DNA from: a virus
Taxonomy: Duplodnaviria > Caudoviricetes
Virus record (IMG/VR): IMGVR_UViG_3300037851_000542
Coordinates: 195,995 to 259,994 of that record
Length of the DNA stretch: 64,000 nucleotides
Direction: 5' to 3' (one strand)
Made by a program: the position numbers and the translations under genes. Shown piece after piece: positions 41,988 through 64,000 of this stretch (positions are counted from its first letter, which is position 1; each line of letters begins with the position of its first letter). Under the pieces are notes generated by a model. That model saw only the letters and a list, made by a program, of their open reading frames with translations, had not been told where the DNA came from and did no database searches.

Positions 41988-42272
41988 TTAAATATTATAA
42001 AAAACACACCATTTGCTAGAATAGCTAGTATTGCTAAATATATTGTAATCAATACTTGGTTGATGTGCAATACTTAATGTATGAAACTTATAACTCACAA
42101 TATCGCTATGCAAGTGTCTGTAAACTATTTTTTCAGTAAGAGTAACAGGTACAATCCTAAGGTTATTATAGTAACTACAATAGTAGTATATTAAATAATC
42201 CTTTGATACTTTTATGCTTGTGGCACTTAATTGAGTTTTAAAACTGATTAAATCAGTATCTTTGATTGCCAT
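41988..42272 (-). CDS. Small protein with the shared C-terminal motif (VFYNI*)
   Basis: ORF track. Confidence 0.6.
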   Translation of the reverse strand: MAIKDTDLISFKTQLSATSIKVSKDYLIYYYCSYYNNLRIVPVTLTEKIVYRHLHSDIVSYKFHTLSIAHQPSIDYNIFSNTSYSSKWCVFYNI

Positions 42273-42469
42273 TCTTTATACTGAGTTTTACCCAAAAGGG
42301 ATATATAAAAAATCTCCATCTTAGTGTCCTTAACAGTCACTGCCCATTTAAAAATAGTGTCATTATTGTAAGGGTCATAGAATTTGTTAAAAAGAATAGC
42401 TTTGTACGTATACTGAATATCTTTATTAAGGCAGGTAGTCAAAAGGTATTTATTCAAAATTATTAGCAT
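42248..42469 (-). CDS. Small protein (SKILI*)
   Basis: ORF track. Confidence 0.55.
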   Translation of the reverse strand: MLIILNKYLLTTCLNKDIQYTYKAILFNKFYDPYNNDTIFKWAVTVKDTKMEIFYISLLGKTQYKEWQSKILI

Positions 42470-42477
42470 AGTAATTA

Positions 42478-42813
42478 TTAAATAAAGGGAACCCCTACCC
42501 AGTATTTGTTGCTAAAAATCTTTGGAAGGCTAATATATTCTTTTGAATTTAAATCAGTAAAAATTAACCTATCATCCCCAATCTGCTCAGAAAACTCAGC
42601 TATTCGGTAGTTTATTTTTACAGCCTCGCTTTTTTTATAAGGCATTCTGGGAAATGATATTAAAAGATACTTACAATTTGGTATAAACGGACAGTTAGAT
42701 CTAATCTTTTTGCATTTAACTATGTTATGGAAACCTTGCTCAGTAGAATCTAAACTACCTCTTTGCTGATTTAATATGGACTCAAATCCCCTTTTTGGGA
42801 TTAAACTGGACAA
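42478..42813 (-). CDS. Small protein (GVPFI*)
   Basis: ORF track. Confidence 0.6.
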   Translation of the reverse strand: MSSLIPKRGFESILNQQRGSLDSTEQGFHNIVKCKKIRSNCPFIPNCKYLLISFPRMPYKKSEAVKINYRIAEFSEQIGDDRLIFTDLNSKEYISLPKIFSNKYWVGVPFI

Positions 42814-43044
42814 TTAAATCTCCTCTAAATACCAACTTCTGTTATAGTTCTTGGAAAAAAGTGTCATTTCTTCTGCACTTCTATTATTGACCAGTACTAA
42901 ATAAGACCCACCTACTACATTAGCGGATTCCCCCATTTTACCAATAGAGCAATTATTCCAATTCTTATTATTGGTCTTGGTTAGAGTTAGGCTGTAAGTT
43001 TTGCCTATACTTATATCTTTATAATTGTTAACTTTCTTTGCCAT
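42814..43044 (-). CDS. Small protein (WYLEEI*)
   Basis: ORF track. Confidence 0.6.
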   Translation of the reverse strand: MAKKVNNYKDISIGKTYSLTLTKTNNKNWNNCSIGKMGESANVVGGSYLVLVNNRSAEEMTLFSKNYNRSWYLEEI

Positions 43045-43074
43045 ATAGATGCTCCGAATTAATTTGACTTAAAA

Positions 43075-44331
43075 TCCTATTTTCGGATAGGGGGTAACTT
43101 GGTTATTAAAATTAAAAAACAAATTAATTATACTATAAAATACTTGATATAAGCAAGCATTATTGTTACTATAACAATAGTATGAAAAAGACTTTTAGGT
43201 ATAAGTGCTACCCAGTGAAACCTCAAGTGGCGGAAAATTTAAACCGCCATTTGAAGCTATGCTGTGACCTTTATAACGGAGTTAAACAGCAGGACGAAGA
43301 TTCTTACCGAAAGACTGAAAAGAGTCCAAGTAAGTACGATGTTATTTGTATGCTTCCCGAGGTTAAGAAAGTTAGTCCGGAATATAAGGAAGTAAATGCG
43401 CAGGTACTGCAAGACGTAGTGGAGCGTTATTTCCGCAATAAACAAGGGTTTTTCGTCAGGCTGAAGAAAAAGCTAGTCGCTGGTATGCCCAGATACAAAA
43501 GTTGTAAAAGGTACGACTCTTTGACTTATAAACAAAACGGCTACAAGTTAGTGGGAAATACCCTTACGCTGGCAAACATCGGAACTTTTAAGCTAAGATT
43601 ACAGCGCCCGATTGAAGGAACAATTAAAACTATTACCGTTTCTCGTAAGTATAACGGAATATTCGTAAACTTTACTACCGAGAGTAAACCTAAAAAGCTA
43701 AGATTCAACAGAAAAGAGATTGGGCTCGATCTAAATGTTAGCGATAATTACATAATGACTTCAGAAGGCGAGGCTTTTTCCTTTCACAATCCCCTTAAAA
43801 CTAATTTAGAGGAGCTTAAAGCAAAGTGTAAGCGTCATTCCAAGAGCAGAGGTTCTTCCCAGCTAAAGCGGATTTACTCTCTAAAGAAACTTCACGCAAA
43901 GGTAAAGAATAGTCGCTTAGACTTTCAGCATAAGTTAACCCGAAAATTAGTAAATACTTACGGCACGATAGCAATCGAGGACCTAAAGCCCTCGGAAATG
44001 CTTACCGAAAATAGTAGCATAAATCGATCCCTTTCGGATCAGGCGTTTGCCCAATTTATTGAGATCTTATCTTACAAAGCGGAAGAAGCTGGTAGGAAGT
44101 TAATCAAGGTAAATCCGGCGTATACTTCTAAAACTTGTAGTAATTGCGGCGCAATACACAAGAATCTAGAAGTAGGAAATAAAGAATTTAATTGTAATTC
44201 CTGCAATTTCCACGCCAATCGAGATTTCAACGCGGCTAAAAATATATTAGCCCGTTCAAAAAACCAGGGCGGACGGCTCTGTGGGTATCCAGTCCCTAGA
44301 AACCCTATACTAAAGTAAGGGGAGTTGTCAC
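43075..44331 (+). mobile_element. IS200/IS605-family TnpB-only element; left boundary approximate
   Basis: tnpB inserted against the local gene orientation; 3' end ggggagttgtcac resembles TnpB right ends; no tnpA seen. Confidence 0.7.
43182..44318 (+). CDS. tnpB: RNA-guided endonuclease TnpB
   Basis: KTFRYKCYP, VNAQVLQDV, RuvC IGLDL / IAIEDL / NRDFNAAKNI, zinc finger CSNC...CNSC. Confidence 0.93.
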   Translation: MKKTFRYKCYPVKPQVAENLNRHLKLCCDLYNGVKQQDEDSYRKTEKSPSKYDVICMLPEVKKVSPEYKEVNAQVLQDVVERYFRNKQGFFVRLKKKLVAGMPRYKSCKRYDSLTYKQNGYKLVGNTLTLANIGTFKLRLQRPIEGTIKTITVSRKYNGIFVNFTTESKPKKLRFNRKEIGLDLNVSDNYIMTSEGEAFSFHNPLKTNLEELKAKCKRHSKSRGSSQLKRIYSLKKLHAKVKNSRLDFQHKLTRKLVNTYGTIAIEDLKPSEMLTENSSINRSLSDQAFAQFIEILSYKAEEAGRKLIKVNPAYTSKTCSNCGAIHKNLEVGNKEFNCNSCNFHANRDFNAAKNILARSKNQGGRLCGYPVPRNPILK

Positions 44332-44350
44332 AGTTTAAATTAAAATAAAA
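44230..44350 (+). ncRNA. Putative TnpB omega/reRNA: scaffold overlapping the tnpB 3' end, guide after TCAC at 44331
   Basis: GC-richer tail ending GGGGAGTTGTCAC; 5' boundary inferred from family architecture. Confidence 0.5.
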
Positions 44351-44631
44351 AACTTAGAATGTTCAGGTATTCCACCGTTCTGTACTAAACAAATGTGATA
44401 ATTATCAAAACTTTTACCCCTACTTTTATAGGTCTCTAATACTATGTACCCAAACATACTTCTAGGAGGCATAGGTCTTGTTACTGTGCCGGTCCTTACT
44501 TTTTGAGTAGATAAAACACTATATTTTCTAGATATGTCTACATATATGTAATCAGAGTTTGATACAACCTGTTGGGTTCCGTGAAAATCTAACCCCAGTA
44601 TTAATGTTCTCCAGCCTATTTTTTTTGCCAC
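44335..44631 (-). CDS. Small protein (KFFILI*)
   Basis: ORF track; GTG start. Confidence 0.6.
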   Translation of the reverse strand: MAKKIGWRTLILGLDFHGTQQVVSNSDYIYVDISRKYSVLSTQKVRTGTVTRPMPPRSMFGYIVLETYKSRGKSFDNYHICLVQNGGIPEHSKFFILI

Positions 44632-44716
44632 ACGCCCCTAATTTAAATTCTACTAGCTTTTTAACTAAGTATATAGTAACATACTAATAGAATAGTTTAC
44701 ATAGGAAAACCTCAAT

Positions 44717-45613: not shown

Positions 45614-45623
45614 GGAATTAAAA

Positions 45624-47871: not shown

Positions 47872-48453
47872 ATGGAATTCTTTTTTACCTCAGATACTCA
47901 TTTTGGACATAAGAATGTTATCAAATACGATAACAGACCATTTTCTAGTATTGAAGAGCACGATGAAGCATTAATAGCCAACTGGAATAGCGCTGTCACT
48001 AAGAAAGACAAAGTATTTTTAGTTGGTGATTTTTCTCTTACTAGTCAAGCTTATTCTAAAGTAGTATTGTCTAGGTTAAACGGACAAATTCATTTGATAA
48101 GAGGTAACCACGACAGGAAGTTGCCAAAGGATGTACTTAGTAAATTTTCTAGAGTAGACTCTGCTTTTTATTGGAGGTTACCTTCCTCTGATCAAGGTAT
48201 TTATATGCATCACTACTCCTGTAGAAGTTGGGACGGAAGCGGCAGAAGAAAGTCTTGGCATATTTTTGGACACGTTCACGGGGCTTTAAATGATAGGCAA
48301 TTAGAATTAGGAATGTCTATGGATGTAGGCATTATGAACAACGATTATAAGCTCTTACACTTAGATGATCTAATTTTAAAGTTTAAGAAGATAGAAGAGA
48401 ACCTGATTTTAAATAATAGAGAAGTTGCAACTCATCACCACGAGGAGCCTTAG
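47872..48453 (+). CDS. Calcineurin-like metallophosphoesterase
   Basis: SDTHFGH, VGDF, GNHD, GHVH. Confidence 0.9.
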   Translation: MEFFFTSDTHFGHKNVIKYDNRPFSSIEEHDEALIANWNSAVTKKDKVFLVGDFSLTSQAYSKVVLSRLNGQIHLIRGNHDRKLPKDVLSKFSRVDSAFYWRLPSSDQGIYMHHYSCRSWDGSGRRKSWHIFGHVHGALNDRQLELGMSMDVGIMNNDYKLLHLDDLILKFKKIEENLILNNREVATHHHEEP

Positions 48454-48848
48454 TGTCTAAAAAATTACCAAATTATATATTACAGCATATACCAAGACTA
48501 AGAGATTTAATAAAAGATACAGTACCTGAGTTTAAAGATAAGGACTTAACACAATATGTAAGGAAAGCCAGTCTTTGGAGTGCTAAGGGTAATTCGTGCT
48601 GGGAATTTAGCTATAAAAGTAAAATAAAATCAGAATTAAAAATTAAGTTTATCAGGGATTGTGGTTATTATTTAGGCTCCTCCGAGATGTGGATGTTATG
48701 TAGCGTTAAAAACTATGACTATCCTATTGAAGACGATTATGATTTTAGATCTTGGCATACTAGTAACTACTGTTGGATAAATATCAGAAACTCTAAGCAG
48801 TTTAATAAACACTGTAAATTTCTACTAACCCCTAAGTATATAATTTGA
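48453..48848 (+). CDS. Hypothetical protein (ends PKYII*)
   Basis: 131 aa; GTG start. Confidence 0.6.
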   Translation: MSKKLPNYILQHIPRLRDLIKDTVPEFKDKDLTQYVRKASLWSAKGNSCWEFSYKSKIKSELKIKFIRDCGYYLGSSEMWMLCSVKNYDYPIEDDYDFRSWHTSNYCWINIRNSKQFNKHCKFLLTPKYII

Positions 48849-50740: not shown

Positions 50741-50983
50741 TTAAATTATAATAAATACTTTTTTAAGTACCCATTTTGCAGAGGAAGTATCAGACTTTAT
50801 AGTAACAGGTTTACCTAATGTAAAATTCTTAAACTGAGTATCAGTCATAATATAAAGTGCTTTAAATTCATTAACACCCAGTGACTGATAAAAACATTCT
50901 GACTTATTTAAGGCTTTTGATCTTCTTACTCCTCTAGGTGCTATAAATGAGCAATAAAAATTAATCCTAGGTTCGCTATACAT
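50741..50983 (-). CDS. Small protein (KVFIII*)
   Basis: ORF track. Confidence 0.55.
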   Translation of the reverse strand: MYSEPRINFYCSFIAPRGVRRSKALNKSECFYQSLGVNEFKALYIMTDTQFKNFTLGKPVTIKSDTSSAKWVLKKVFIII

Positions 50984-51517: not shown

Positions 51518-52453
51518 TTAGATAGGACTGACTTCGCTTGCTAATTTAAGAACCTCGTCCCCGTTTTCTTGTTCAATTAAAAGTGCCGGGTTCTCTGGGG
51601 TTCCGTTTCTAGTAATCAAAGAGCTTTTAATATTCTTTTTAACAGTTCTACGGTAAAGTTGAACAATAGTTCCGGTAGCAGTTCCGCTTCCAAATGACCA
51701 TTTCACTTTCATTCCTACCCTAACACTGGAGTTAGAATAGTTTTTATTAAAAAGGTCTTTAGAATATTCAAAACCGTATTCGCTCGCATTTTCCATAATG
51801 TCCTTAATTTCATCTGAAATTTCATCTGACATTACCATATAAGCCTCAGCCAGCTCTTGAACCTCCTCGTTTTGACCTTCTTTAAATACTTTATTGGCTA
51901 ATTTATCTCCAGCAGCAATCCAGTCTAACATATCTTCCAGAAATGCCTTATCAACATCGTTCATTACATACCTATCTTTAAATTCTGACATACTTACTGT
52001 TCCTGCTTTATTTTTTTTATCAGCCGCTTCCATTTGGTTCCAAAGTTTATTTGCCCAAGCTACACCTGCATCTCCTCCCCAAAGGAGCCAGCTTATATAA
52101 GAGTTTGAAGGTCCACCGTCTGGTTTTTTATCGTCATGGTTCTTTTTAAAGGCAGAATGGCGTGAGAAGAATTTATACATTCTCTTAGCAGTAGCAGGTG
52201 ATACAGTTTCTTTATTTTTTAGCTGCACAGCTCTAGCCACCCCTACGGCTAGACCCCCTCTACCGTATTTTTTTCTTAACTCAAGTCCTCTGGCAGCGGC
52301 TTTAGCAACTCCGTCCGGAGGGGTAAAATCAATATGAGCATACTTCTTAACAATACCAGCATTTAATTTTAAAACCCGAGAAGCAGCTTCAATCTTATTA
52401 TTAATACTAGCAAGATTTTCTAGTGCTTTTAAAATTCTATCTTTAATGTCCAT
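51518..52453 (-). CDS. Multidomain phage protein with a C-terminal DUF2945/Hva1 Tudor-like domain
   Basis: FTPPDGVAKAAARGL...RMYKFFSRH...WLLWGGDAG; VKWSFGSGTATG...ITRNGTPENPALLIEQENG. Confidence 0.7.
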   Translation of the reverse strand: MDIKDRILKALENLASINNKIEAASRVLKLNAGIVKKYAHIDFTPPDGVAKAAARGLELRKKYGRGGLAVGVARAVQLKNKETVSPATAKRMYKFFSRHSAFKKNHDDKKPDGGPSNSYISWLLWGGDAGVAWANKLWNQMEAADKKNKAGTVSMSEFKDRYVMNDVDKAFLEDMLDWIAAGDKLANKVFKEGQNEEVQELAEAYMVMSDEISDEIKDIMENASEYGFEYSKDLFNKNYSNSSVRVGMKVKWSFGSGTATGTIVQLYRRTVKKNIKSSLITRNGTPENPALLIEQENGDEVLKLASEVSPI

Positions 52454-52609: not shown

Positions 52610-52855
52610 TCATAAAAGATATAATTGGTCTACCAATCTAAGTTGAACCTCTATAAATTTTGTTGGTCCTGTATAAAAATTACCAAAGAAGCACTTTTCA
52701 AATTCTCCTATTTTTATTAACTCGTAAAGCTCATAATCGTGAAGTTTAAACTTGTTTTTTATACAATTAGGTGTTCCATAGTAATATTCAATAACATTAT
52801 TAGCTAAGGTAACCTCATAGTGATAAATTAAATCATTACTTATATCCACTGCCAA
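52610..52855 (-). CDS. Small protein (QLYLL*)
   Basis: ORF track. Confidence 0.55.
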   Translation of the reverse strand: MAVDISNDLIYHYEVTLANNVIEYYYGTPNCIKNKFKLHDYELYELIKIGEFEKCFFGNFYTGPTKFIEVQLRLVDQLYLL

Positions 52856-53100
52856 ATCTCCGATATTGATATTCTATAGGTGGTTACCTCATAAGGATCA
52901 TTACCATAACATACCATTTCCATACCATTCATAAATTCCCCTACTGGCAAATCAATGTTATCATAATAATTTAAATCTTCCCCATCTAGCCCAAATTTGT
53001 CATGTATTTTTTCTAATGCTTTTTTAATGTTTACACAGGTGTACTCGCCATAATCACATCTACTTTCATCCCAATAAACAACTGAATAAAGCTTATGCAT
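52840..53100 (-). CDS. Small protein (IWQWI*)
   Basis: ORF track. Confidence 0.65.
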   Translation of the reverse strand: MHKLYSVVYWDESRCDYGEYTCVNIKKALEKIHDKFGLDGEDLNYYDNIDLPVGEFMNGMEMVCYGNDPYEVTTYRISISEIWQWI

Positions 53101-53103
53101 AAA

Positions 53104-53427
53104 TTAAATATAAATAAAAGGTTTTCTCTTCAATACTATGTAGCTCCAGTATGCGATATATCCTGTTCTATCATTACTACTAAGATGACTTCCTTCTAAC
53201 GCCAATTTGTGCAAGTCTTCCGGATATAAAATTACAGGATATCCATTTAAAAATGCTTTTTTATTTTCTCTACTAAACATATAGTGAGAAAATACCTCAT
53301 CAAAACTATTAGTAATTTTTGCCTGGAATGGTATTATACTTTCACAATCTTTACAAACACAAAGTTTAGAATGCTCTATTGTATCTAAGATACTCTCTGA
53401 AAATCTTCTTATAAAGTATTTAGCCAT
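53104..53427 (-). CDS. Small protein (PFIYI*)
   Basis: ORF track; follows a sigma-28-like site. Confidence 0.65.
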   Translation of the reverse strand: MAKYFIRRFSESILDTIEHSKLCVCKDCESIIPFQAKITNSFDEVFSHYMFSRENKKAFLNGYPVILYPEDLHKLALEGSHLSSNDRTGYIAYWSYIVLKRKPFIYI

Positions 53428-53459
53428 TTTAAATATGAATTTTAAAGGTTACATATTTT

Positions 53460-53488
53460 ATATCGGCGCAAAATGAAAATAACTTTAG
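53460..53488 (-). promoter_or_regulatory. Sigma-28-like promoter
   Basis: CTAAAGTT; TAAA-N16-GCCGATAT. Confidence 0.7.
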
Positions 53489-53502
53489 TATTATTTAGTA
53501 GG

Positions 53503-54016: not shown

Positions 54017-54259
54017 TTAAATAAAATACCACATCTTTTCAACTAAACAATGTCCGTATTGGTAACCTAAGTACCCTGTTGTTAAGTAAAACTCTTTTTG
54101 ATGGATAATACAGTTAGAGATAAGTTCTTCTGGGGTAGCTGACATATCTAGGTCTTCTATAGTCTCAATAAGTATATTGTCTAACTCTTTACAGGTAATA
54201 GACCAAGTTTTATTACCAATAGAAATTTCATCCCAACTTTCAATCAAGTAAGCAGTCAT
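54017..54259 (-). CDS. Small protein (MWYFI*)
   Basis: ORF track. Confidence 0.65.
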   Translation of the reverse strand: MTAYLIESWDEISIGNKTWSITCKELDNILIETIEDLDMSATPEELISNCIIHQKEFYLTTGYLGYQYGHCLVEKMWYFI

Positions 54260-54262: not shown

Positions 54263-54454
54263 CTAAATGTAATAATAGATCTTTTTCATACCTTGATATT
54301 GATAATTAAACCACTGTAGATTTGCAGGTACAGCTAGTTGGATATTAGCAATTTGTTGCCATATGGTTATCAATTCGTCAATATGTGCTGTTTTTTGTTT
54401 TTCAGTAAGCGTTTGATATTTATTTAAAATATAATCATATAGTAAGTAAGGCAT
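54263..54454 (-). CDS. Small protein (IYYYI*)
   Basis: ORF track. Confidence 0.65.
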   Translation of the reverse strand: MPYLLYDYILNKYQTLTEKQKTAHIDELITIWQQIANIQLAVPANLQWFNYQYQGMKKIYYYI

Positions 54455-54495: not shown

Positions 54496-55152
54496 TCAAA
54501 TTACTATGAAAAAATCTTGTAAGTATTGTATTTTAAAATAATAATAATGGTGCCAATCTAATGTTATATTTCCGGGCAAATTACCTAATCTACATAGATA
54601 CCTAAATATTTCATCTGTTACAGGAAACCTAAATGATTCAAACTCCCTTAAGGCTGTTTGTACTGCATACTTTCTATCCACCCCAATATCTATGAAGTAT
54701 TTAATTATATCATACTGACCGTATGCAATGCTTTCCCATAGGTAAGGTTCCAAGGTGTTTCTTGTTTCAGGTAAATTATTAACAAGAAACTCAACTATAG
54801 GTAAGTGCCCATTTCTAATGCTATATTTTAATGCAAGGTATATATCTTTGATAGAAGCATAGGTTTTTGTATTAATTAAATATTTAACTATCTCTAAATG
54901 TCCATCAACTGCCGCTAATTTTAAAGGCGAACTATCTCCTGCAGTTAGTAGCGATTTAACTTTTTCAACCTCAACTACGTACCTAACTATTTCTAGGTTA
55001 CCGTACTGAGAAGCTATATATAAAACTTGCAAAGGGGAACCTGTCTCGTAGTATGTATGAGTAATTGTATCTGCAGGTGGAAGGGTGCCTTGAATAATGT
55101 GTTCCCAGACTAACTTACTTAACTCAGGTGAAGTTATATTTGTATTAGCCAT
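54496..55152 (-). CDS. Ankyrin-repeat protein (ends FFIVI*)
   Basis: About four repeats: ASQYGNLEIVRYVV, AAVDGHLEIVKYLI, SIRNGHLPIVEFLV, SIAYGQYDIIKYFI. Confidence 0.88.
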   Translation of the reverse strand: MANTNITSPELSKLVWEHIIQGTLPPADTITHTYYETGSPLQVLYIASQYGNLEIVRYVVEVEKVKSLLTAGDSSPLKLAAVDGHLEIVKYLINTKTYASIKDIYLALKYSIRNGHLPIVEFLVNNLPETRNTLEPYLWESIAYGQYDIIKYFIDIGVDRKYAVQTALREFESFRFPVTDEIFRYLCRLGNLPGNITLDWHHYYYFKIQYLQDFFIVI

Positions 55153-55154: not shown

Positions 55155-55415
55155 TTAAATAAAATAATAAAACGATCTTACAATTTTAAGATCTCTCCAA
55201 GGGTAAGGTAAGTTTAAGGCAAAAAAGTTAAAAGTACCGTCAGGTTTTATAATTTCAGATCTGCATTTATTTACAGATTTGCTCATTTCAACTTCATATT
55301 TATATGCAAGTGCTTTTTCAAAAATCTCTGAAATGTAAACCTCATAGACAATAATATCCGGATAGAAATATTTGTATTTTGCTTTCTCTTTGCTATACCC
55401 TACTAAATAACTCAT
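55155..55415 (-). CDS. Small protein (FYYFI*)
   Basis: Start moved to MSYLVGY, just after the rtcB stop. Confidence 0.65.
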   Translation of the reverse strand: MSYLVGYSKEKAKYKYFYPDIIVYEVYISEIFEKALAYKYEVEMSKSVNKCRSEIIKPDGTFNFFALNLPYPWRDLKIVRSFYYFI

Positions 55416-55416
55416 A

Positions 55417-56769
55417 TTATTTATTTTTTTTCTTCCAAAACGTATTGTCAAAATGCCCTGCCATAATACAACCGTATGGTATTATTTCATCTATTACTTG
55501 CCCAAGATCGAATTCTTCCATTTGCTTCCTAACAGTGTTAGCATTCTTATAAGCACTTGGTAATTCTGAGACATCTATTTGTTTAGAATAGAATCTAATA
55601 TCTAACCCTTTAGTTTCATTTATGAATGTCTGCTCTGGAGATGTATCAATAGAACTTTTATGTTGCGCCCTACTAAAATTTCTACCAGCGCCGTGAGGAG
55701 CAAAGCCTAGGTTAGACTCTGAAGTAGTACCCTTAACGACTAATATAGGCTCACTCATATTTAAGGGTATTAACCTTAAACCATTTACACTATCGGGTAC
55801 AAATTTATTATCTAAAGGCGTAGCCCCCTTAGCGTGATAAAATAAATCACCATCTTTAAAAACAAAGTTATGCTCATTCCAGAATCTATCTAAGGGATCT
55901 ACTTTTATGTTATTACTTACTGCATCGTGTAGAGTAGTATGATTTAACTTAGTCCAAGTTCTAACTATCTGTAAAGCTTGCCAATATGACTCACCTTCTT
56001 TAGTATCAGCAGGAATCCAAGCATTATTTTCAGAAGCTTTTGGGGCAATGTCTTTTAAAAAAGTCTTTGCCACTTTTACACCCTGTGTGTATAAATATGC
56101 CCCAAAACCACGACTACCGTGATGAGTTACCATTACTGTCTCGCCAGTATTTCTAGAAGTACCAACAAAAAGGAAGTGGTTGCCATCACCCTGAGTGCCT
56201 AAATGCCCCTTAGCTAAGCCTAGACTTTTATCAGAATTTAAAAAGCTATTATCTAAAATCTTAGCTTCAAGCTCAGAGGGTAGAGTAGAAAACTTCTCTC
56301 TGCCACCAGCACCAAAGTGTGTAATAGAAAGGGCACTATCCAGAATAAGTTTGGGGGATACGTTTCCAAAGTTAGTCGCCATAACCGAGCAGCAGATATC
56401 AGCGCTGTGCATAGATGGATGAATAGCATTCCTAGTTACTACAATGCCTCCTACGGGTATTTGACCTTCTCCTGTAGGGCAAGCGTCGGGCATAACAGCG
56501 CCTGTAACTACAGTAGGTGTCACCATAATCTGATTCATTACTGAGATTACCTTTTCAACGTTATCCTTCTCATGATCAGATTCCGCTCTGATATTTTGAT
56601 AAAAAGGCAAGGGTGCACAATAAGGTTCAAGATATTTAGGCTGAGCAGACTCCAAATAATCAGTTAAAAATTCACCAGTTAGATTAAACTGATTAATGTG
56701 ATCAATAGCAGATTTAAACCACTTACCTGGTTTGTAACCTAAATCTATTAATGTTTTACCGGTAATCAT
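55417..56769 (-). CDS. rtcB: RtcB RNA ligase
   Basis: MPDACP, SADICCSV, GTQGDGNHF, THHGSRG, HNFV, HAKGA, HGAGR, ELPSAYK. Confidence 0.93.
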   Translation of the reverse strand: MITGKTLIDLGYKPGKWFKSAIDHINQFNLTGEFLTDYLESAQPKYLEPYCAPLPFYQNIRAESDHEKDNVEKVISVMNQIMVTPTVVTGAVMPDACPTGEGQIPVGGIVVTRNAIHPSMHSADICCSVMATNFGNVSPKLILDSALSITHFGAGGREKFSTLPSELEAKILDNSFLNSDKSLGLAKGHLGTQGDGNHFLFVGTSRNTGETVMVTHHGSRGFGAYLYTQGVKVAKTFLKDIAPKASENNAWIPADTKEGESYWQALQIVRTWTKLNHTTLHDAVSNNIKVDPLDRFWNEHNFVFKDGDLFYHAKGATPLDNKFVPDSVNGLRLIPLNMSEPILVVKGTTSESNLGFAPHGAGRNFSRAQHKSSIDTSPEQTFINETKGLDIRFYSKQIDVSELPSAYKNANTVRKQMEEFDLGQVIDEIIPYGCIMAGHFDNTFWKKKNK

Positions 56770-56780: not shown

Positions 56781-57062
56781 TTAAATTAAATAATAAGCTT
56801 TTTCAATAGTTTGAGGGTCAGTAGTTACAATGGGTCTTCTAAGTCCATATTCTGGCAATTCTTTATACTTCATCAGAAAATCAAATGCCCAATAAGGATT
56901 TAAGTATTGCAACATAAGTATCTTAATTATAGTATCCTCGGACCAAGCTATAAAGTATTTTTTAGTAGATTTCACATTCATATTAAAATACTTATGTTTA
57001 TTGTTTTCTCGCTTTAACTCAGTGCATAAAACTGAGTACTTAGGTTCAATTTCCGTTTCCAT
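56781..57062 (-). CDS. Small protein (AYYLI*)
   Basis: ORF track. Confidence 0.65.
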   Translation of the reverse strand: METEIEPKYSVLCTELKRENNKHKYFNMNVKSTKKYFIAWSEDTIIKILMLQYLNPYWAFDFLMKYKELPEYGLRRPIVTTDPQTIEKAYYLI

Positions 57063-57498
57063 AATACTTTAAATAATATAAAAAAAAATTAGCAATTATG
57101 TCTTTAGAATCATCAGCACCTTTGGACATTAAAAAGTGAGCATCATTAAAATGTCTGTTTTCTAAAGCACACTTGAGTGTTTCAGAAAAAGGAGAACAAG
57201 AACTACGCCTGTTCACATTTGCTCCTTGTTCTACAAACCATACCACTACGTCCAGACAACCTTGTGAGGCGGCTGATCTTAAAGCCAGATAACGGTCATA
57301 AGCTATTTCAGAACCGCAAGATACTAAGTACTTTACAGTAGGCAGGTGTCCCCCGTAAGCAGCTTCAAGAAGCGCAATATTCATAGTGCGCTGATCTATA
57401 TCTGTAGACTTAATATAACTCTCGACTAACTCTAAGTTACCATAACTACAAGCTTTATAAAATTCAGGTATTAAATGCTGTTCCATCTTACTCTGCAA
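57046..57498 (-). CDS. Ankyrin-repeat protein
   Basis: ACSYGNLELV, AAYGGHLPTVKYLV, AASQGCLDVVVWFVEQGANVN. Confidence 0.88.
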   Translation of the reverse strand: MQSKMEQHLIPEFYKACSYGNLELVESYIKSTDIDQRTMNIALLEAAYGGHLPTVKYLVSCGSEIAYDRYLALRSAASQGCLDVVVWFVEQGANVNRRSSCSPFSETLKCALENRHFNDAHFLMSKGADDSKDIIANFFLYYLKYYGNGN

Positions 57499-57519
57499 TA
57501 CTTAATAAATACTTAAATT

Positions 57520-57548
57520 ATATCGGCGACTATTTAAATTAACTTTAA
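57520..57548 (-). promoter_or_regulatory. Sigma-28-like promoter
   Basis: TTAAAGTT; TAAA-N16-GCCGATAT, close upstream of the ankyrin gene. Confidence 0.7.
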
Positions 57549-57705
57549 TTATATTTTTAACCCGAACTAAAGAAATTTAACTAATATTAAACTAACAATT
57601 AAACTGCTTAAAAATTTTGGGCAGGATCCTTAAAAACTTTAGATTGATTATATATTATCTTTAGAGTAAAATATACCACACTAAACTAGTAAGATCACTT
57701 GTTTA

Positions 57706-57936
57706 TTAAATCATATAATAAGTTGTTGTCTCAGGGAACCCTTTATCTGTTTTATCATGTCTAATATATTTAAGATTTGTTACCTTATATTCTTCTTGGG
57801 TTAAACATACCCACTCTACACTCTTAATATATTTCAGACTCATATTTGCACTGCTAGAGTAATACGGAACCCCAGTACTCCTCACATAATGATAGGGGTT
57901 TAGTTTATATCTTACTATTTTTATTAAATAAAACAT
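57706..57936 (-). CDS. Microprotein MFYLIK...TYYMI*
   Basis: ORF track, start adjusted. Confidence 0.65.
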   Translation of the reverse strand: MFYLIKIVRYKLNPYHYVRSTGVPYYSSSANMSLKYIKSVEWVCLTQEEYKVTNLKYIRHDKTDKGFPETTTYYMI

Positions 57937-57951
57937 GTTACACATTGTACA

Positions 57952-58113
57952 CTATATAAAGTAATACCACTCTAGTATATCTGGAAGTTTTTTTATTAAT
58001 TCTCTGTGCCCATCTGTTATTATTGAATAATCCTTTACAACGTACCAGTGTATAGTACCTTTTATCCCCCAACCAAACTCACATCTCTCACGTTTAATTA
58101 AAATATCAACCAT
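57952..58113 (-). CDS. 53-aa microprotein MVDILIK...EWYYFI*
   Basis: Manual translation; not in the track. Confidence 0.65.
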   Translation of the reverse strand: MVDILIKRERCEFGWGIKGTIHWYVVKDYSIITDGHRELIKKLPDILEWYYFI

Positions 58114-58124: not shown

Positions 58125-58265
58125 CTAAATAAAATAATAAGTTTGTATTTTACCGCCTTTCTTATTAGGATTCCATAACTGCCTTGATTTAAAATTGGCA
58201 TCAGTGATAGGAATACAAACATTATCCTCCCACACAGTACCTGCTTTATATTTAAGTAAATACAT
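58125..58265 (-). CDS. 46-aa microprotein MYLLKYK...TYYFI*
   Basis: Manual translation. Confidence 0.65.
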   Translation of the reverse strand: MYLLKYKAGTVWEDNVCIPITDANFKSRQLWNPNKKGGKIQTYYFI

Positions 58266-58267: not shown

Positions 58268-58483
58268 CTATATTGAATAAAAAACTGTTACATCGGGGTA
58301 TGCTTCGTGTATGGTTATATTATACATTAGATCAAAAATAGTTATGTCTAACTGCTCTTTATCTTGCTCTAAATATAACCATTCTACTTTGCTAATATGA
58401 GGTCTTTGTACGTACTGTTTTAACTCATTTTCATCGTATCTGTCGTCATATACAAGCCTTTGTATTTTTATTAGGTATTTCAT
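58268..58483 (-). CDS. 71-aa microprotein MKYLIK...VFYSI*
   Basis: ORF track. Confidence 0.65.
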   Translation of the reverse strand: MKYLIKIQRLVYDDRYDENELKQYVQRPHISKVEWLYLEQDKEQLDITIFDLMYNITIHEAYPDVTVFYSI

Positions 58484-58489: not shown

Positions 58490-58639
58490 TTATACTAAGT
58501 AATAAATCTGTACACCTACTTTATCTTTGCTGGGGTTACTTAATCCAAAAGAAAATCTCAGTGCCTCAAATGCAACTTGATTGACACTGAAGAAGATACT
58601 TTTATTGGGATCAAGTTCATAGTATCTAATCAAATACAT
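58490..58639 (-). CDS. 49-aa microprotein MYLIRYY...IYYLV*
   Basis: Manual translation. Confidence 0.65.
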   Translation of the reverse strand: MYLIRYYELDPNKSIFFSVNQVAFEALRFSFGLSNPSKDKVGVQIYYLV

Positions 58640-58651
58640 ATTATCTTTCAT

Positions 58652-58798
58652 TTAAATAAAGTACCACCACCACTTACCATAAACTTTTCCGGCGCCGCTG
58701 CCCCTTTTTGTCCTGTAAGCTGGGTTAACTAAAGACTCATCTACAACAACCCACGACACCGTAGAGGAGTATGTTCCATAGTTTATTAAAATCATCAT
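58652..58798 (-). CDS. 48-aa microprotein MMILINY...WWWYFI*
   Basis: Manual translation. Confidence 0.65.
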   Translation of the reverse strand: MMILINYGTYSSTVSWVVVDESLVNPAYRTKRGSGAGKVYGKWWWYFI

Positions 58799-58807: not shown

Positions 58808-58954
58808 TTATATAAAATACCACCAGTCCAGATTAGTATAGTTTCTATTCTTTAGTCTATAGTCATTATTAAGTACTGATTGATCTATTACAGACCAGTA
58901 GTATTCTTCCACGCCGGTATAATTAAAGCCTCTTCTTTTAGTTAGTATGTACAT
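58808..58954 (-). CDS. 48-aa microprotein MYILTKR...DWWYFI*
   Basis: Manual translation. Confidence 0.65.
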   Translation of the reverse strand: MYILTKRRGFNYTGVEEYYWSVIDQSVLNNDYRLKNRNYTNLDWWYFI

Positions 58955-58963: not shown

Positions 58964-59083
58964 TTATATAAAATAAAGCCAGTAAGGTTTCTCTATCTCT
59001 GTGATCTTAAAGTCTTCAAACCTTCCTGCTAAGCAATAACAAAATGAGTTATCATTATAAGTAACTTTGCATAGATACTTCAT
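58964..59083 (-). CDS. 39-aa microprotein MKYLCKV...YWLYFI*
   Basis: Manual translation; alternative start at 59095. Confidence 0.6.
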   Translation of the reverse strand: MKYLCKVTYNDNSFCYCLAGRFEDFKITEIEKPYWLYFI

Positions 59084-59091
59084 AGCATTTT

Positions 59092-59372
59092 TCATATTAG
59101 GCACCGCCATACATTTCCTGTTAAAACATTTCTATATTTAAACCATTCTGCTTCGTTGTTATTATCTGAGATTGTATAATATTTTACACTCTTACCACAC
59201 CTACTTTCTTGTCTTAACAGATATGTATGGTTCATATTAGGTAATACCATTTTGAATTTGTTATATACATCCATTCCTTTGTTCAGTCCTAGCTTATTTC
59301 TGTCACCGCGAAATACATAATTAAATTATCATCTACACGTCTGGTTTCTATTAAGTAATATCTATACAACAT
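59092..59372 (-). pseudogene. Possibly frameshifted family member: 27-aa MLYRYYLIE... (59289-59372) plus track ORF 59092-59274 ending WRCLI*
   Basis: The second frame is open upstream of its ATG to about 59320, overlapping the 27-aa ORF. Confidence 0.4.
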
Positions 59373-59520
59373 AGTATGCAGTTACTTTTGCCGTAATAAA
59401 ATCTCTTTTAAAATATATTAATGTATACTCTCTTTCGTCTATTAATCTCCGTACTACATCATTCTCTTTTGTCCCAGAATAGATTAATGTTTCTAGTTTT
59501 ACCAGATAGTAACTCTTCAT
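59362..59520 (-). CDS. 52-aa microprotein MKSYYLVK...AYYVV*
   Basis: Manual translation; ATGA-type overlap with 59517. Confidence 0.65.
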   Translation of the reverse strand: MKSYYLVKLETLIYSGTKENDVVRRLIDEREYTLIYFKRDFITAKVTAYYVV

Positions 59521-59747
59521 ATTAGGTTAAATATTTTTATTATACCATAGGAGTTAGGTATAGTCACTCTGCCCGAAATCATATCATTAATTTCACTGTC
59601 TGCCAAGTCAGATATCTCTTCAGGGGATAAGTGATCTTGGATAGTAGTATCTTCTATTAATAATCCTATAATAATATCTTTAAACTCTTCTATAGATAAA
59701 GCTATTAATTTTTCCTTCTTGTGGTAAAAAAAGTTTACTAGGTACAT
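59517..59747 (-). CDS. Small protein MYLVN...IFNLI*
   Basis: ORF track. Confidence 0.65.
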   Translation of the reverse strand: MYLVNFFYHKKEKLIALSIEEFKDIIIGLLIEDTTIQDHLSPEEISDLADSEINDMISGRVTIPNSYGIIKIFNLI

Positions 59748-59758: not shown

Positions 59759-60097
59759 TTATATTATACGCAAAATATCTATTACACCGTAAAATTCCAT
59801 AGCTCTGTCTGTTTGCTTTGAAAGTGGAATATCTACTATATAGAACGTATTTTTTACTTTTGGTTTTCTTAGATAAAACAGGTCATTGTAAATCTCTATA
59901 GGACTTTCACCATTAGGTAGGTGGGGAAACCTGTCTTTAAAAAGAACATTTATTAACCACCACTTTGAGCATCTTTTATATAAGTAAGGCTTTAAAGCAG
60001 GATATGGAAATTTCCCGCCCCAGCTTTTGTCAACTTCTGTGAAGTAAACCAGTAAATGGTCTTCTTTGTGTAACTCTAAAAATTCCTGCGAATCCAT
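59759..60097 (-). CDS. Small protein (ILRII*)
   Basis: ORF track. Confidence 0.65.
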   Translation of the reverse strand: MDSQEFLELHKEDHLLVYFTEVDKSWGGKFPYPALKPYLYKRCSKWWLINVLFKDRFPHLPNGESPIEIYNDLFYLRKPKVKNTFYIVDIPLSKQTDRAMEFYGVIDILRII

Positions 60098-60120
60098 TTT
60101 GTTATACTAAATTGAATTAG

Positions 60121-60570: not shown

Positions 60571-60588
60571 TATGTTTCCTTTTTATTA

Positions 60589-61077
60589 TTAATCTAAATT
60601 AAACCACTCTGGTTGGTGCTCTTTTATTTTCCACGTAGCTATTTTAGCTTTATCCTTTATGTAATAAAGACGATAGGCTTGTACTGCATCTTCTGGGTTT
60701 TTATATTCAACCGGCATAGCCTGAGCAAAAGGAGTCATACCTTTAGGGATATTTTCCGGCGCTTGTTTTAATAATTTAGACATTTTAGCATCTGTTGCGT
60801 GTACTTTACCGTACCTTCTAGTGTACTCCAAACACATTTCCTGGAAATGATCATAAAGCCAGTTGTAATTGTCCAGCCCCGATCTTGCCCAGATAGATGA
60901 AGGATGATTAACGTGAGAGGCTCTGTATAGACTGTCTATATAAGGCGCTGTTGCGTTTAAAACTCTATGGGCAGTAGACATCAGCTGAGCACTTTCTAGA
61001 ATCATCTTGACTACGTGCTTGTCGCACAGAGACCGTGCTGCTACTTTTGGGTCCTCGTCTACAACAAAGATATTCAT
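60589..61077 (-). CDS. denV: Pyrimidine-dimer DNA glycosylase (DenV/endonuclease V family)
   Basis: MNIF...LCDKHVVKMILESAQL, HVNHPSSIW, QAMP, AYRLYY. Confidence 0.85.
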   Translation of the reverse strand: MNIFVVDEDPKVAARSLCDKHVVKMILESAQLMSTAHRVLNATAPYIDSLYRASHVNHPSSIWARSGLDNYNWLYDHFQEMCLEYTRRYGKVHATDAKMSKLLKQAPENIPKGMTPFAQAMPVEYKNPEDAVQAYRLYYIKDKAKIATWKIKEHQPEWFNLD

Positions 61078-61084
61078 ATTTTTC

Positions 61085-61318
61085 CTAAATTAAATAATAC
61101 ATTTCATTTAAACAAGTATGTATAATCTCATGTCTACAGCATAATGTAAAATAATAGTCGTGATTATGTATAATACTTCTTTTTAAATCTACTATATCCC
61201 CTATTAGAATCACATCCCAAAGCGTCGATATATCTGTTATTTTAGCCCCTGTAGAAAGCGTTAAGTAGTATGGAGGTGCTTGAGGTATAACAGTGTTTTT
61301 TATAAGTACTTTATTCAT
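61085..61318 (-). CDS. Small protein (MYYLI*)
   Basis: ORF track. Confidence 0.65.
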   Translation of the reverse strand: MNKVLIKNTVIPQAPPYYLTLSTGAKITDISTLWDVILIGDIVDLKRSIIHNHDYYFTLCCRHEIIHTCLNEMYYLI

Positions 61319-61330
61319 AGTTTTCTTACA

Positions 61331-61633
61331 TTAAATTAAATAAAACATATCATAGCAATCTGTAAATCTTATACGATTATTTTTAATGCCTTTTACAACA
61401 GGGTTATTAAGAAATATAGACACGCCTCTTACTGACTTATTAATAATGTCTTGTTTGTTTATCATATAATTTTCCAAAGAGGTAACATAAGGATCTATTC
61501 CAAAAGGATCTGTATAGACTTGCACATCTACATCTTTAATCTTACTAGATTTTATATATACTAAAAAATGTAAACCCGACCTTTCTTTGGCTAAGTAAGT
61601 ATTATAAACTTTAAGTTGTTCTTTATTTTCCAC
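61331..61633 (-). CDS. Small protein (MFYLI*)
   Basis: ORF track. Confidence 0.65.
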   Translation of the reverse strand: MENKEQLKVYNTYLAKERSGLHFLVYIKSSKIKDVDVQVYTDPFGIDPYVTSLENYMINKQDIINKSVRGVSIFLNNPVVKGIKNNRIRFTDCYDMFYLI

Positions 61634-61639
61634 TTTTTA

Positions 61640-61945
61640 TCAGATTAAGTAAAATAAGTCCTGACATGCCCAATTCTCGTGGGCATCTAAGTCAAAAGAA
61701 TCAAACCAATCAACATCAAAACAAGCACTGTCTTTATATGTTTTAGTATAGGTCCTTCTGTCTCTAATAAACTCGTCAAAAGAAACAATATCATTATTAC
61801 CTAAATACACACAAACTAAATGTAAATTTTTAGGCTTTATTTTTACTATAGCGTAACGAGTTTTAGACCTACGACGGTTTTCTGTGTATTGTTTACCTTT
61901 ACCTAAGTAGTAATATAAATCAGGTTGCTTTTTAACGTCTCTCAT
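61640..61945 (-). CDS. Small protein (LFYLI*)
   Basis: ORF track. Confidence 0.65.
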   Translation of the reverse strand: MRDVKKQPDLYYYLGKGKQYTENRRRSKTRYAIVKIKPKNLHLVCVYLGNNDIVSFDEFIRDRRTYTKTYKDSACFDVDWFDSFDLDAHENWACQDLFYLI

Positions 61946-61953
61946 GTATTAAT

Positions 61954-62139
61954 CTATATTAAAACTGCATTTAATATACCCACTATTACCAAAGAAAAAA
62001 AAGTACCTACTATAAATAAAACAAGCCATATAATAGGGTAAGGATCAGGAAAGTCATTTTTACGAAGCACCCAAGTAGGCACTAAAGCAGAAATAACCAT
62101 TAAAATTAAAAAAACAAATTTACAAATTTCTTCTTTCAT
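61954..62139 (-). CDS. Small two-TM membrane protein
   Basis: Resembles the adjacent 62136 ORF. Confidence 0.65.
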   Translation of the reverse strand: MKEEICKFVFLILMVISALVPTWVLRKNDFPDPYPIIWLVLFIVGTFFSLVIVGILNAVLI

Positions 62140-62324
62140 AATCCTAATCCGTTTAATATCGTGTTTATGATTGCTACTAAAAACACTATACCTAATAATG
62201 TTAACACGCAGAACATAAAAGTAAAAAACTCTTTATGAGGATGATCACCTACTACCTTATGGGCAATGCAAAAACAAAATAGCGCTAATATTAAAAATAC
62301 GACTTGGGTAACTATTTCTCTCAT
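62136..62324 (-). CDS. Small two-TM membrane protein
   Basis: AAGGA RBS. Confidence 0.65.
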   Translation of the reverse strand: MREIVTQVVFLILALFCFCIAHKVVGDHPHKEFFTFMFCVLTLLGIVFLVAIINTILNGLGL

Positions 62325-62340
62325 GTTTTTCCTTTTTAAA

Positions 62341-63069
62341 TTAAAATTTGTTTAAACTTTCAGATGCAAAATTAAAATAATCTTTATCTAACTCAATACC
62401 TATAAAATTTCTATTATTCTTCTTACAGCTAAGTCCAGTAGTACCTGTTCCCATAAATGGATCTATTATAGTATCACCTTCTGCTGAAAAATTAGTAATA
62501 ATTTTATTAACTAACTCTATTGGATAAGTAGCTCCGTGGGTTTTTATAACTTTCTTGCCTCTTTTTATTTGCCATAAATTCTCTAGAGTACCCCTATTAA
62601 AGTTACCTTTTTTAAACTGCCTAGTAATAGCTTCTTCTTTGCTAGCTAAAACTATTAGAACTTCAAATCTAGAGTTTAAAACACCACTACCTATTGCCGG
62701 TTCAGCATTTATTTTGTCCCAGATAATAAATTCTTTAACGTTTTCATTAAAGTGACCTAACAGTTTGTACAGTGCTTGTTTATTGCCGGTTAGAAACTGA
62801 ACATTATAAAATACTAAGTGGCTGACCCTTAACAATTGATTTAGTACTTTGACATTAAAGTTAAAATACTCTTCCATAGATAAGTTATTAGAATAGTTAG
62901 CATACTTAGTACTAATCTCTTTTACTATTTGTCTAGAACAGTGTTTCCCATTACGTACTCGTAAATTCATATTGTAAGGAGGGCTAGTTATAGCAAGATC
63001 ACAAGTATTATCTTTGATAAGCTTCAGATAACCTAAACAATCACCGTGTAATAGTTTAATATTACTCAT
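62341..63069 (-). CDS. DNA N4/N6 methyltransferase (beta class)
   Basis: LLHGDC, ITSPPY, HGATYP, IDPFMGTGTT, GIELD. Confidence 0.92.
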   Translation of the reverse strand: MSNIKLLHGDCLGYLKLIKDNTCDLAITSPPYNMNLRVRNGKHCSRQIVKEISTKYANYSNNLSMEEYFNFNVKVLNQLLRVSHLVFYNVQFLTGNKQALYKLLGHFNENVKEFIIWDKINAEPAIGSGVLNSRFEVLIVLASKEEAITRQFKKGNFNRGTLENLWQIKRGKKVIKTHGATYPIELVNKIITNFSAEGDTIIDPFMGTGTTGLSCKKNNRNFIGIELDKDYFNFASESLNKF

Positions 63070-63328
63070 TAGTCCAGCCGGATACAGTAAAAGTCTTTAG
63101 GGTAGTAACTACAGTATAACCTTCATTTACAAGTTCGTTTAAAACTGCTATTATAAAAGGCATTTGATCCGGACTGCCCTTATCGAAAGTAGCAAATGTT
63201 TGTCCAAACTTACGTTCCTCATATATTGCATCTCTGACAAAGGCTCTCCACTGTTCTGTTAAAGTTTCATCTGTAAGAACTTCTTCAATTAAATTTCCTG
63301 TGTAAGGATCTAGTACTCTGTTTCCCAT
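63062..63328 (-). CDS. Hypothetical protein
   Basis: 88 aa; coupled to both neighbours. Confidence 0.65.
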   Translation of the reverse strand: MGNRVLDPYTGNLIEEVLTDETLTEQWRAFVRDAIYEERKFGQTFATFDKGSPDQMPFIIAVLNELVNEGYTVVTTLKTFTVSGWTNE

Positions 63329-63630
63329 TATTTATCTCCTATATACATTTGCCCGTCGGAAGTGCAGTTCAAGCCGTCTTTAAAAGTAGAATACTTCTCT
63401 ATATAATAATGCTCTAGTTTTTCCCAATCAGCGGTAAATTCAGATAGTTGTACAATTTCCCAATCGGCTTTTTCGGTAAACGCAAAGGCTAGATTTAAAG
63501 GGTTTCTAAACTCATATCTTTTTTGCCATCTTTTTCTAAAATAAACATTTAAACTCGACTTTATAGTGGAGCCTACATACTTTAGATACCTGTTATGTTT
63601 ATGCCTAAGCAAGTAAACTTGTTTCTCCAA
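63328..63630 (-). CDS. GIY-YIG nuclease-domain protein
   Basis: VYLL...YVGST...R...LEHYYI...GLN. Confidence 0.75.
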   Translation of the reverse strand: MEKQVYLLRHKHNRYLKYVGSTIKSSLNVYFRKRWQKRYEFRNPLNLAFAFTEKADWEIVQLSEFTADWEKLEHYYIEKYSTFKDGLNCTSDGQMYIGDK

Positions 63631-63662
63631 AATTAATCCTATATTAAATGGTTACACAGTTT

Positions 63663-63691
63663 ATATCGGCAAAGTTAAACTAAAACTTTAG
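63663..63691 (-). promoter_or_regulatory. Sigma-28-like promoter
   Basis: CTAAAGTTT; TAAA-N16-GCCGATAT. Confidence 0.72.
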
Positions 63692-63697
63692 TTAAAT

Positions 63698-63826
63698 TTA
63701 AACTAAGTAGTAAATTATAGTTATTATCAATAATCGTATTATCTTTTTACTCCAAATCAGTTAACAATTTGTAAAGAATTCTGTTTTTATTGCGGTAATA
63801 TAATAACTTATTAAGTAAATACTCAT
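63698..63826 (-). pseudogene. Microprotein family member with an internal TAA
   Basis: MSIYLISYYITAIKTEFFTNC*LIWSKKIIRLLIITIIYYLV*. Confidence 0.5.
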
Positions 63827-63827
63827 A

Positions 63828-64000
63828 TTATATTAAATAAAGAACCAGTTTAAATTTAAAATATGACTTACCGATGTGAATAATGAAGTGGTCAATGTCT
63901 GCATTTTCATATGCTTTTGAATTTTTTACCACATCTAGATCAAAGACGGCACTTAATCCAGATTTAAAAATTACTAATATGTAATTATTGTTGTTACTTG
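63828..64000 (-). CDS. 5'-truncated small protein ending VLYLI*
   Basis: Manual translation; open to the window edge. Confidence 0.6.
   Translation of the reverse strand, partial: SNNNNYILVIFKSGLSAVFDLDVVKNSKAYENADIDHFIIHIGKSYFKFKLVLYLI

Follow-up and report, generated by a model that had tools for sequence, protein, structure and literature searches.

A short hydrophobic C-terminal tail shared by about 80 accessory proteins of a Caudoviricetes phage

Among described C-terminal signals, the ssrA tag, which ends in YALAA and is added by transfer-messenger RNA (tmRNA), serves ClpXP, ClpAP, and FtsH. Docking tails in replication include the DDDIPF tip of SSB, the acidic tails of T7 gp2.5 and gp4, and the clamp-binding tails of T4. 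Class II PDZ ligands have the form hydrophobic-x-hydrophobic-COOH, the HbYX motif of proteasome activators has a penultimate tyrosine, and the ankyrin proteins of poxviruses are tied to a degradation machine, via eukaryotic Skp1, by a C-terminal PRANC/F-box-like module. The DNA analyzed here comes from a phage of the Caudoviricetes (Duplodnaviria; IMG/VR record IMGVR_UViG_3300037851_000542, 259,994 bp, guanine-plus-cytosine [GC] content of 0.33, CheckV completeness of 95%). The window, meaning the whole stretch of 64,000 nucleotides that was presented, is the final 64 kb of that record (positions 195,995 to 259,994), and positions below are those of the window unless given as genome positions. 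Many proteins of this phage share a hydrophobic C-terminal tail that ends in Ile or Val. As with the degrons of AAA+ proteases (ssrA and LarA), this is a short nonpolar peptide at the extreme C terminus of differing proteins, and the phage also encodes a Clp protease.

The tail and its distribution

In the greedy set of open reading frames (ORFs) used for the window, 30 ORFs on the minus strand between 41988 and 62139 have Ile (28) or Val (2) as the final residue, most of them with an aromatic pair followed by Leu or Phe and then Ile (Table 1). A first-pass annotation of this DNA had counted 28 Ile and 3 Val ends; the first number was recovered on recounting, and the second was one too high. 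The tails and the pairs of Ile and stop codons that it quoted are correct (ATA-TAG at 57952, ATT-TAA at 58652, and ATC-TGA at 61640), whereas the length range that it gave for the proteins, 39 to 218 amino acids, is 46 to 218 as measured in the window. It had also described the recognizable enzymes of the region as lacking the tail, and this is the case for RtcB, DenV, and a methyltransferase (62341 to 63069), as well as for an ORF at 63328 to 63630. The shared tail is thereby confirmed, on a larger scale than that annotation had it.

The genome as a whole contains 395 ORFs, of which 93 end in Ile, an amino acid that makes up 7.8% of the residues, and 24 end in Val. The consensus at the C terminus is [K/D]-[I/L/F/W]-[Y/F/L/W]-[Y/I/H]-[L/F]-[I/V]-stop, with Ile-Phe-Tyr-Leu-Ile as the typical form, and the information content is at background level past position −5 (the last residue being position 0). 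A strict pentapeptide pattern, [ILFWAVM][YFLW][YIH][LF][IV]-stop, forms the C terminus of 41 ORFs. In total, the tail is carried by about 80 accessory proteins, or about 20% of the phage genes, and by none of the structural proteins in the genome-wide ORF set. The carriers are clustered in arrays of small genes, at genome positions 224 to 8830 (29 consecutive genes), at 23 to 37, 41 to 47, and 60 to 64 kb (both strands), and at 238 to 258 kb, which lies in the window. In all of them, the stop codon directly follows Ile or Val, with zero residues beyond, and the residue preferences are position specific and alike between families.

The tail is enriched more than 300-fold over every null model considered. 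At internal positions, the strict pentapeptide occurs 5 times in 77,880, which predicts 0.03 occurrences at C termini against the 41 seen, and 2,000 shuffles of the residues within each protein yielded 0.12 strict tails on average and never more than 3. Nonselected ORFs from the same DNA bear the tail in 3 of 559 cases. Across 80 other phage loci, 125 of 1,921 ORFs have a final Ile, and only 3 end in the pattern aromatic-aromatic-x-[IV]. No tail was found in a 219-kb AT-rich contig (GC content of 0.32) of a jumbo phage in which RtcB is surrounded by small ORFs or in any of the 151 ORFs of a 160-kb sample from a host-like metagenome-assembled genome (MAG) of the Bdellovibrionota. Since the shuffles, the nonselected ORFs, the other loci, the AT-rich contig, and the MAG all give values near or at zero, AT composition is not the cause of the signal, and the enrichment proposed in the first-pass annotation is borne out.

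The synonymous codons at positions −1 to −4 match the usage of the genome. Tyr is encoded by TAT and TAC 34 and 11 times (31 and 14 expected), the Phe codons occur at the expected frequencies, and Leu draws on all six of its codons. Codons containing G are common (TGG, CAY, GTN, and CTN), and Trp is frequent at positions −3 and −4. All three stop codons occur, although TAG is rarer in tailed genes (13%) than in the others (27%; P = 0.0125). The tail is fixed relative to the stop codon and not to the next start, the spacing to which ranges from overlaps to gaps of more than 150 nucleotides (nt), and in 13 of 41 cases a strict tail is followed by no gene within the next 30 nt or has a convergent neighbor. 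When the tail is searched as a DNA pattern, there are 34 matches against 8 (4 + 4) for a reversed-pattern control. Because codon usage is neutral, the motif is tied to the stop codon and found on either strand, and the reversed control is low, the signal resides in the peptide. A related phage contig (Logan SRR17165160), which is syntenic, encodes an orthologue of the tailed ORF at genome positions 61220 to 61552; the two are 25% identical, and the orthologue ends in RKIYLI against KKIHLI here, with synonymous changes and another stop codon. On these sequence grounds, the tail is maintained by selection on the protein, as had been proposed from the use of all three Ile codons and all three stop codons.

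Carriers, predicted folds, and possible roles

The statement that the bodies of the tailed proteins are unrelated holds in part. Ankyrin-repeat proteins, a DUF7448 protein, and small ORFans all share the tail, but 29 tandem ORFs form one paralogous family. The ankyrin protein already recognized among the carriers is supported by a Pfam match (Table 1), and seven of the nine ankyrin-repeat paralogues of the phage (91 to 355 amino acids, helical solenoids) bear the tail straight after the last repeat. In the DUF7448 protein (genome positions 41577 to 41969; PF24240, E value of 4e−29), the match to the family stops at residue 118. Among 119 listed homologues, 118 end in polar residues shortly after the conserved YYSExVxF, and the extension ending in WEIPEFKYII occurs only in this phage and in a relative with 78% identity, so that the DUF7448 tail is, by sequence comparison, a lineage-specific extension. 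The tail habit as a whole appears limited to this phage lineage. The ankyrin and DUF7448 carriers, the orthologue with 25% identity, the exact end with shared positional preferences, and the lineage restriction together argue that the free hydrophobic C terminus is itself selected. DNA searches, tblastn searches of a phage collection with two ORFs from the window, and searches of INPHARED and IMG/VR with the DNA polymerase all failed to find a close relative of the phage.

Once the tails were trimmed, BLASTP and phmmer found a paralogue for 12 of 86 tailed proteins. The 29 ORFs at genome positions 224 to 8830 align as one family in which every member ends exactly at Ile or Val, and the family profile recovers all of them with hmmsearch even without the tail. 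The same profile matches the window ORF at 61640 to 61945 with an E value of 4e−4 with the tail and 2e−3 without it, and this ORF probably belongs to the family, which has 29 to 31 members in all. As the profile of genes at the start of the record reaches an ORF near its end, the genome ends are probably joined. The ORF at 61331 to 61633 matches the profile with an E value of only 0.1, and no relative other than itself was found among 5.8 billion proteins. A comparison by hhalign of the tandem family with the mini-proteins of the window gave a probability of 2%. As far as sequence comparison can detect homology, the tandem family, the mini-proteins, the ankyrin proteins, and the DUF7448 protein are mutually unrelated, and a single paralogous fold family does not account for all the tails.

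The reading that we tentatively prefer is that the tail is a C-terminal recognition tag, for which a degron would be the most likely form. One common factor would read the tail at the free C terminus, and the five nonpolar terminal residues would mark the protein for degradation by an AAA+ protease, either the phage ClpP with a single-ring ClpC-D2-like ATPase or the Lon, FtsH, or Clp of the host. The whole accessory set would thereby have a short lifetime or be removed on cue. The tail would double as the last, fully hydrophobic β-strand in the small paralogous families, and it would have been added to the ankyrin and DUF7448 domains too. We infer that the tail is read and that its reader is a protease, and likewise which protease this would be. 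Five hydrophobic C-terminal residues constitute the transferable and sufficient Lon degron of LarA (PMC10665427), and bacterial C termini are in general skewed against hydrophobic residues, which raise proteolytic susceptibility (PMC10862746). The natural occurrence of the phage tail on ankyrin, DUF7448, and small ORFan families amounts to the transferability between unrelated proteins that is looked for in a degron.

Both components of a phage Clp machine are present. The phage ClpP (genome positions 135445 to 135987, minus strand) gives a full-length ClpP match, its Ser-His-Asp triad aligns with that of 6mx2, and it scores 239 bits to PRK00277 (cutoff of 249) against 87 bits to a head-maturation model. 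A single-ring AAA+ ATPase of 613 amino acids (genome positions 87387 to 89228, plus strand) aligns over residues 286 to 600 with the D2 domain of ClpC and ClpA, including the pore loop, and its AGF tripeptide aligns with a ClpC loop that we take to be ClpP docking. For the N-terminal domain of 285 residues, only 18 relatives turned up among 1.84 billion representatives, and nearly every one has the same architecture. ClpP lies 6 to 8 kb away in two of these, and Rad52 usually adjoins where neighbors could be resolved; in SRR17165160, the domain is 39% identical. A search with ESM Atlas features gave no result for this domain. A wider version of the degron reading, in which the pentapeptide of about 80 proteins forms a phage-encoded, proteome-wide tagging system read by the phage's own Clp machine (ClpP and a rare unfoldase with a private N-terminal domain), the accessory set is destroyed or rerouted on cue, and other jumbo-phage lineages have private tags of their own, must be regarded as doubtful.

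Several observations weigh against a degron. Known degrons are usually exposed, unstructured ends, unlike the predicted position of the tail in a sheet. In AlphaFold2 models, the tandem family is β-rich (predicted local distance difference test [pLDDT] score of 86, predicted template modeling score of 0.74), and its tail, residues 90 to 95, forms the final strand, and 17 mini-proteins of the window form a β-β-α-β fold (pLDDT score of 73.5) in which the tail is again the last strand; neither model has a significant fold match in the PDB, AFDB clusters, or the ESM Atlas. An N-terminal strand of the form Y-[LF]-hydrophobic is present in 25 of 74 tailed small proteins and in 13 of 145 untailed ones, which fits a clasp between N- and C-terminal strands. 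Owing to paralogy, the number of independent acquisitions of the tail is far below 80. No tail is seen in the 32 kb of nonarray regions sampled from more distant phages that encode the same AAA+ family and a ClpP. Finally, LWIFF and similar bulky hydrophobic 5-mers did not act as degrons for ClpXP or ClpAP in vitro in an Escherichia coli screen (PMC10862746).

The tail could instead be purely structural, a hydrophobic core strand with which very small folds are closed off, in many cases against an N-terminal YL[IV] strand, or a C-terminal cap in the ankyrin proteins, spread by paralogy and a few convergences and read by nothing. This explanation is a serious rival, although on balance somewhat unlikely. 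In most of the small proteins, the tail is predicted from the models to be a structural strand, the tandem family holds together as paralogues with the tail removed, the N-terminal Y[LF]-hydrophobic strand is 5-fold enriched among tailed small proteins, and ankyrin stacks require hydrophobic caps. A role in the fold leaves unexplained why the habit is restricted to one lineage, why helical ankyrin and β-rich families share the same position-specific residues, and why no residue follows Ile or Val. Nor does it account for the gain of the tail by the DUF7448 protein, given that the domain of 118 of 119 listed homologues is complete without it. The first-pass annotation had held that its proposal would fall if a single fold, with a last strand that accounts for the motif, were common to all members; the AlphaFold2 models of the small families bear this out in part, but such a fold cannot account for the ankyrin and DUF7448 proteins or for the exact Ile or Val end.

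The second serious rival, rather improbable in our estimate, is a nonproteolytic docking tag, by which the C terminus would bind one hub (a phage or host scaffold, a chaperone, or the membrane face) through β-strand addition or a PDZ-like pocket, so that accessory proteins are colocalized, assembled, or loaded into the virion. It draws on the same evidence for a read C terminus as the degron reading, and the strict Ile or Val at position 0 with Leu or Phe at position −1 resembles class II PDZ ligands. Domain searches of the phage proteins found no PDZ or S41 domain (PF13180, PF17820, and PF03572), however, and the tail is on no structural protein, and no candidate hub was identified.

A nucleic acid signal is very unlikely. 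The 15 nt and the stop codon would then act as a gene-junction element (for reinitiation, as a promoter or RNase site, or as a recombination joint for the shuffling of cassettes), with the peptide as a by-product. For most tailed genes, the next start is 0 to 15 nt away, the codons of the tail are A/T rich, and the DNA of the DUF7448 tail is identical across 10 codons in two relatives with diverged flanks. The final Ile is also skewed toward ATT and ATC (ATT, ATC, and ATA in 45, 10, and 17 cases against 29, 6, and 37 expected; P = 1.5e−5), ATA being avoided. Against such an element stand the genomewide synonymous usage in the rest of the tail, where TGG, CAT or CAC, GTN, and CTN are common, the attachment of the motif to the stop codon even before long gaps and convergent genes, its presence on both strands, and the rarity of out-of-frame copies. 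A translational-coupling or ribosome-binding junction would call for a fixed spacing to the downstream start and a DNA-level bias in synonymous codons, whereas the spacing varies and the codon bias is confined to the last Ile. Chance, or an artifact of ORF calling in a genome of 33% GC in which the codons for Ile, Phe, Tyr, and Leu are A/T rich, has a negligible probability and is already refuted by every null, by orders of magnitude. Both explanations are largely excluded.

Features of the window and origin of phage genes

The tailed ORFs of the window and the untailed genes that interrupt their array are listed in Table 1. A TnpB/Cas12f-like gene (OrfB_IS605 and TNB domains; 43182 to 44318, plus strand) stands between tailed genes and has paralogues at genome positions 38824 to 40449 and 82652 to 83128. 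A protein of 311 amino acids (51518 to 52453, minus strand), which has an Hva1_TUDOR domain at its C terminus and matches DUF305 weakly, ends in VSPI, which is probably not the tail. Elsewhere in the window, the gene for the large subunit of ribonucleotide reductase (20025 to 22802, plus strand) is split by an intein that contains a LAGLIDADG domain.

Table 1. Tailed ORFs of the window and untailed genes within their array (window positions)
Position	Strand	Feature	C terminus	Remark
41988..42272	-	94-aa ORF	VFYNI	
42248..42469	-	73-aa ORF	SKILI	Loose fit
42478..42813	-	111-aa ORF	GVPFI	No Pfam match
44335..44631	-	98-aa ORF	FFILI	Convergent with TnpB, hence no same-strand downstream gene
48453..48848	+	131-aa ORF	PKYII	
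50741..50983	-	80-aa ORF	VFIII	
52840..53100	-	86-aa ORF	IWQWI	
53104..53427	-	107-aa ORF	PFIYI	
54017..54259	-	80-aa ORF	MWYFI	Next gene 40 nt away
54263..54454	-	63-aa ORF	IYYYI	
54496..55152	-	218-aa ankyrin-repeat protein	FFIVI	Ank_2, 1.3e−14
55155..55451	-	ORF	FYYFI	Start probably an internal Met, N terminus MSYLV
55417..56769	-	RtcB RNA ligase	KKKNK	Untailed, within array
56781..57062	-	93-aa ORF	AYYLI	
57046..57498	-	150-aa ankyrin paralogue	YGNGN	Untailed, internal contrast
57706..57945	-	79-aa ORF	TYYMI	207-nt downstream gap
57952..58113	-	53-aa mini-protein	WYYFI	AlphaFold2 β-β-α-β, tail as last strand
58125..58265	-	46-aa mini-protein	TYYFI	
58268..58483	-	71-aa ORF	VFYSI	
58490..58651	-	53-aa ORF	IYYLV	
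58652..58798	-	48-aa ORF	WWYFI	
58808..58954	-	48-aa ORF	WWYFI	
58964..59110	-	48-aa ORF	WLYFI	
59092..59274	-	60-aa ORF	WRCLI	Weak version of the tail
59362..59520	-	52-aa ORF	AYYVV	
59517..59747	-	76-aa ORF	IFNLI	
59759..60097	-	112-aa ORF	ILRII	
60589..61077	-	DenV-like glycosylase		Untailed, within array
61085..61318	-	77-aa ORF	MYYLI	
61331..61633	-	100-aa ORF	MFYLI	
61640..61945	-	101-aa ORF	LFYLI	Probable tandem-family member
61954..62139	-	61-aa two-helix membrane protein	AVLI	Hydrophobic throughout; chance fit probable

A promoter of the sigma-28/FliA type, (C/T)TAAAG-N16-(G/C)CGATA, lies ahead of dozens of genes, tailed arrays and untailed small genes alike (for example, at 53428 to 53502, 57499 to 57705, and 63631 to 64000 and at genome positions 9 to 24 kb). 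In the latter region, every small gene has a Shine-Dalgarno site, and a palindrome, GCTTTATATAAAGC, lies upstream. The long ORFs are intact under code 11, with no sign of stop-codon recoding.

The phage encodes a full release factor 1 (RF1; prfA, 527 bits; genome positions 42822 to 43907, plus strand), which shares 89% identity with the RF1 of a Lake Mendota MAG of the Bdellovibrionota; in that MAG, the gene lies beside groESL on a contig with a GC content of 0.47. Because the next RF1 matches also come from the Bdellovibrionota, the host probably belongs to this phylum, as far as sequence similarity indicates. A Bacteroidota host, suggested by the 67 to 70% identity of RtcB, was dropped given the Bdellovibrionota-like RF1, the Shine-Dalgarno sites, and the sigma-28-type promoters outside the arrays. 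RtcB is Bacteroidota-like and RF1 Bdellovibrionota-like, and the acquired phage genes are therefore of mixed origins. The host-like tmRNA encodes a tag that ends in YATAMPVAA.

Comparison with described C-terminal signals

A full-text literature search found no described system like the shared tail, in agreement with the first-pass annotation, which had recognized none. Should the tail be read, we would know of no earlier case of a bacterial virus that labels a fifth of its proteome with a single short C-terminal signal. The tail would then offer a handle on dozens of ORFans together, through a shared fate or partner, as well as a portable six-residue tag for the poorly studied Bdellovibrionota and a testable idea for the Clp proteases that jumbo phages encode. 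If the tail is structural only, the phage would hold a large new family of mini-proteins built on a clasp of N- and C-terminal strands.

The tail differs from AAA+ degrons in being aromatic and in ending in Ile or Val rather than in Ala-Ala or His, and it is predicted by the models to lie in a β-strand. It is encoded in the genes of about 80 proteins and not added by tmRNA, and the host-like tag ends in AMPVAA, so that a likeness to ssrA does not hold. Replication docking tails are comparable in that one short C-terminal peptide is found on several proteins, where it binds one partner. Those tails are acidic or amphipathic and belong to a few DNA-handling proteins with known partners, whereas the phage tail is purely hydrophobic and is carried by dozens of ORFans.

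Class II PDZ ligands and HbYX motifs are systems in which a hydrophobic or aromatic C terminus is read with its free carboxylate. The tail fits the class II PDZ pattern, with Tyr, Ile, His, or Phe at position −2 (His not being hydrophobic) and Ile or Val at position 0, though a PDZ reader was not found in the phage. It does not fit HbYX, as its Tyr is at position −2 and its penultimate residue is Leu or Phe, and there is no 20S proteasome context. The poxvirus PRANC proteins offer a parallel of viral ankyrin-repeat proteins that share one C-terminal module, which in their case is folded, far longer, and bound to eukaryotic Skp1, whereas the tail spans 5 to 6 residues, belongs to a bacterial virus, and is present on carriers other than ankyrin proteins. 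Both in scale, at about 20% of the genes, and in chemistry, being entirely hydrophobic or aromatic with a final Ile, the tail is unusual among known C-terminal tags of either the degron or the docking type.

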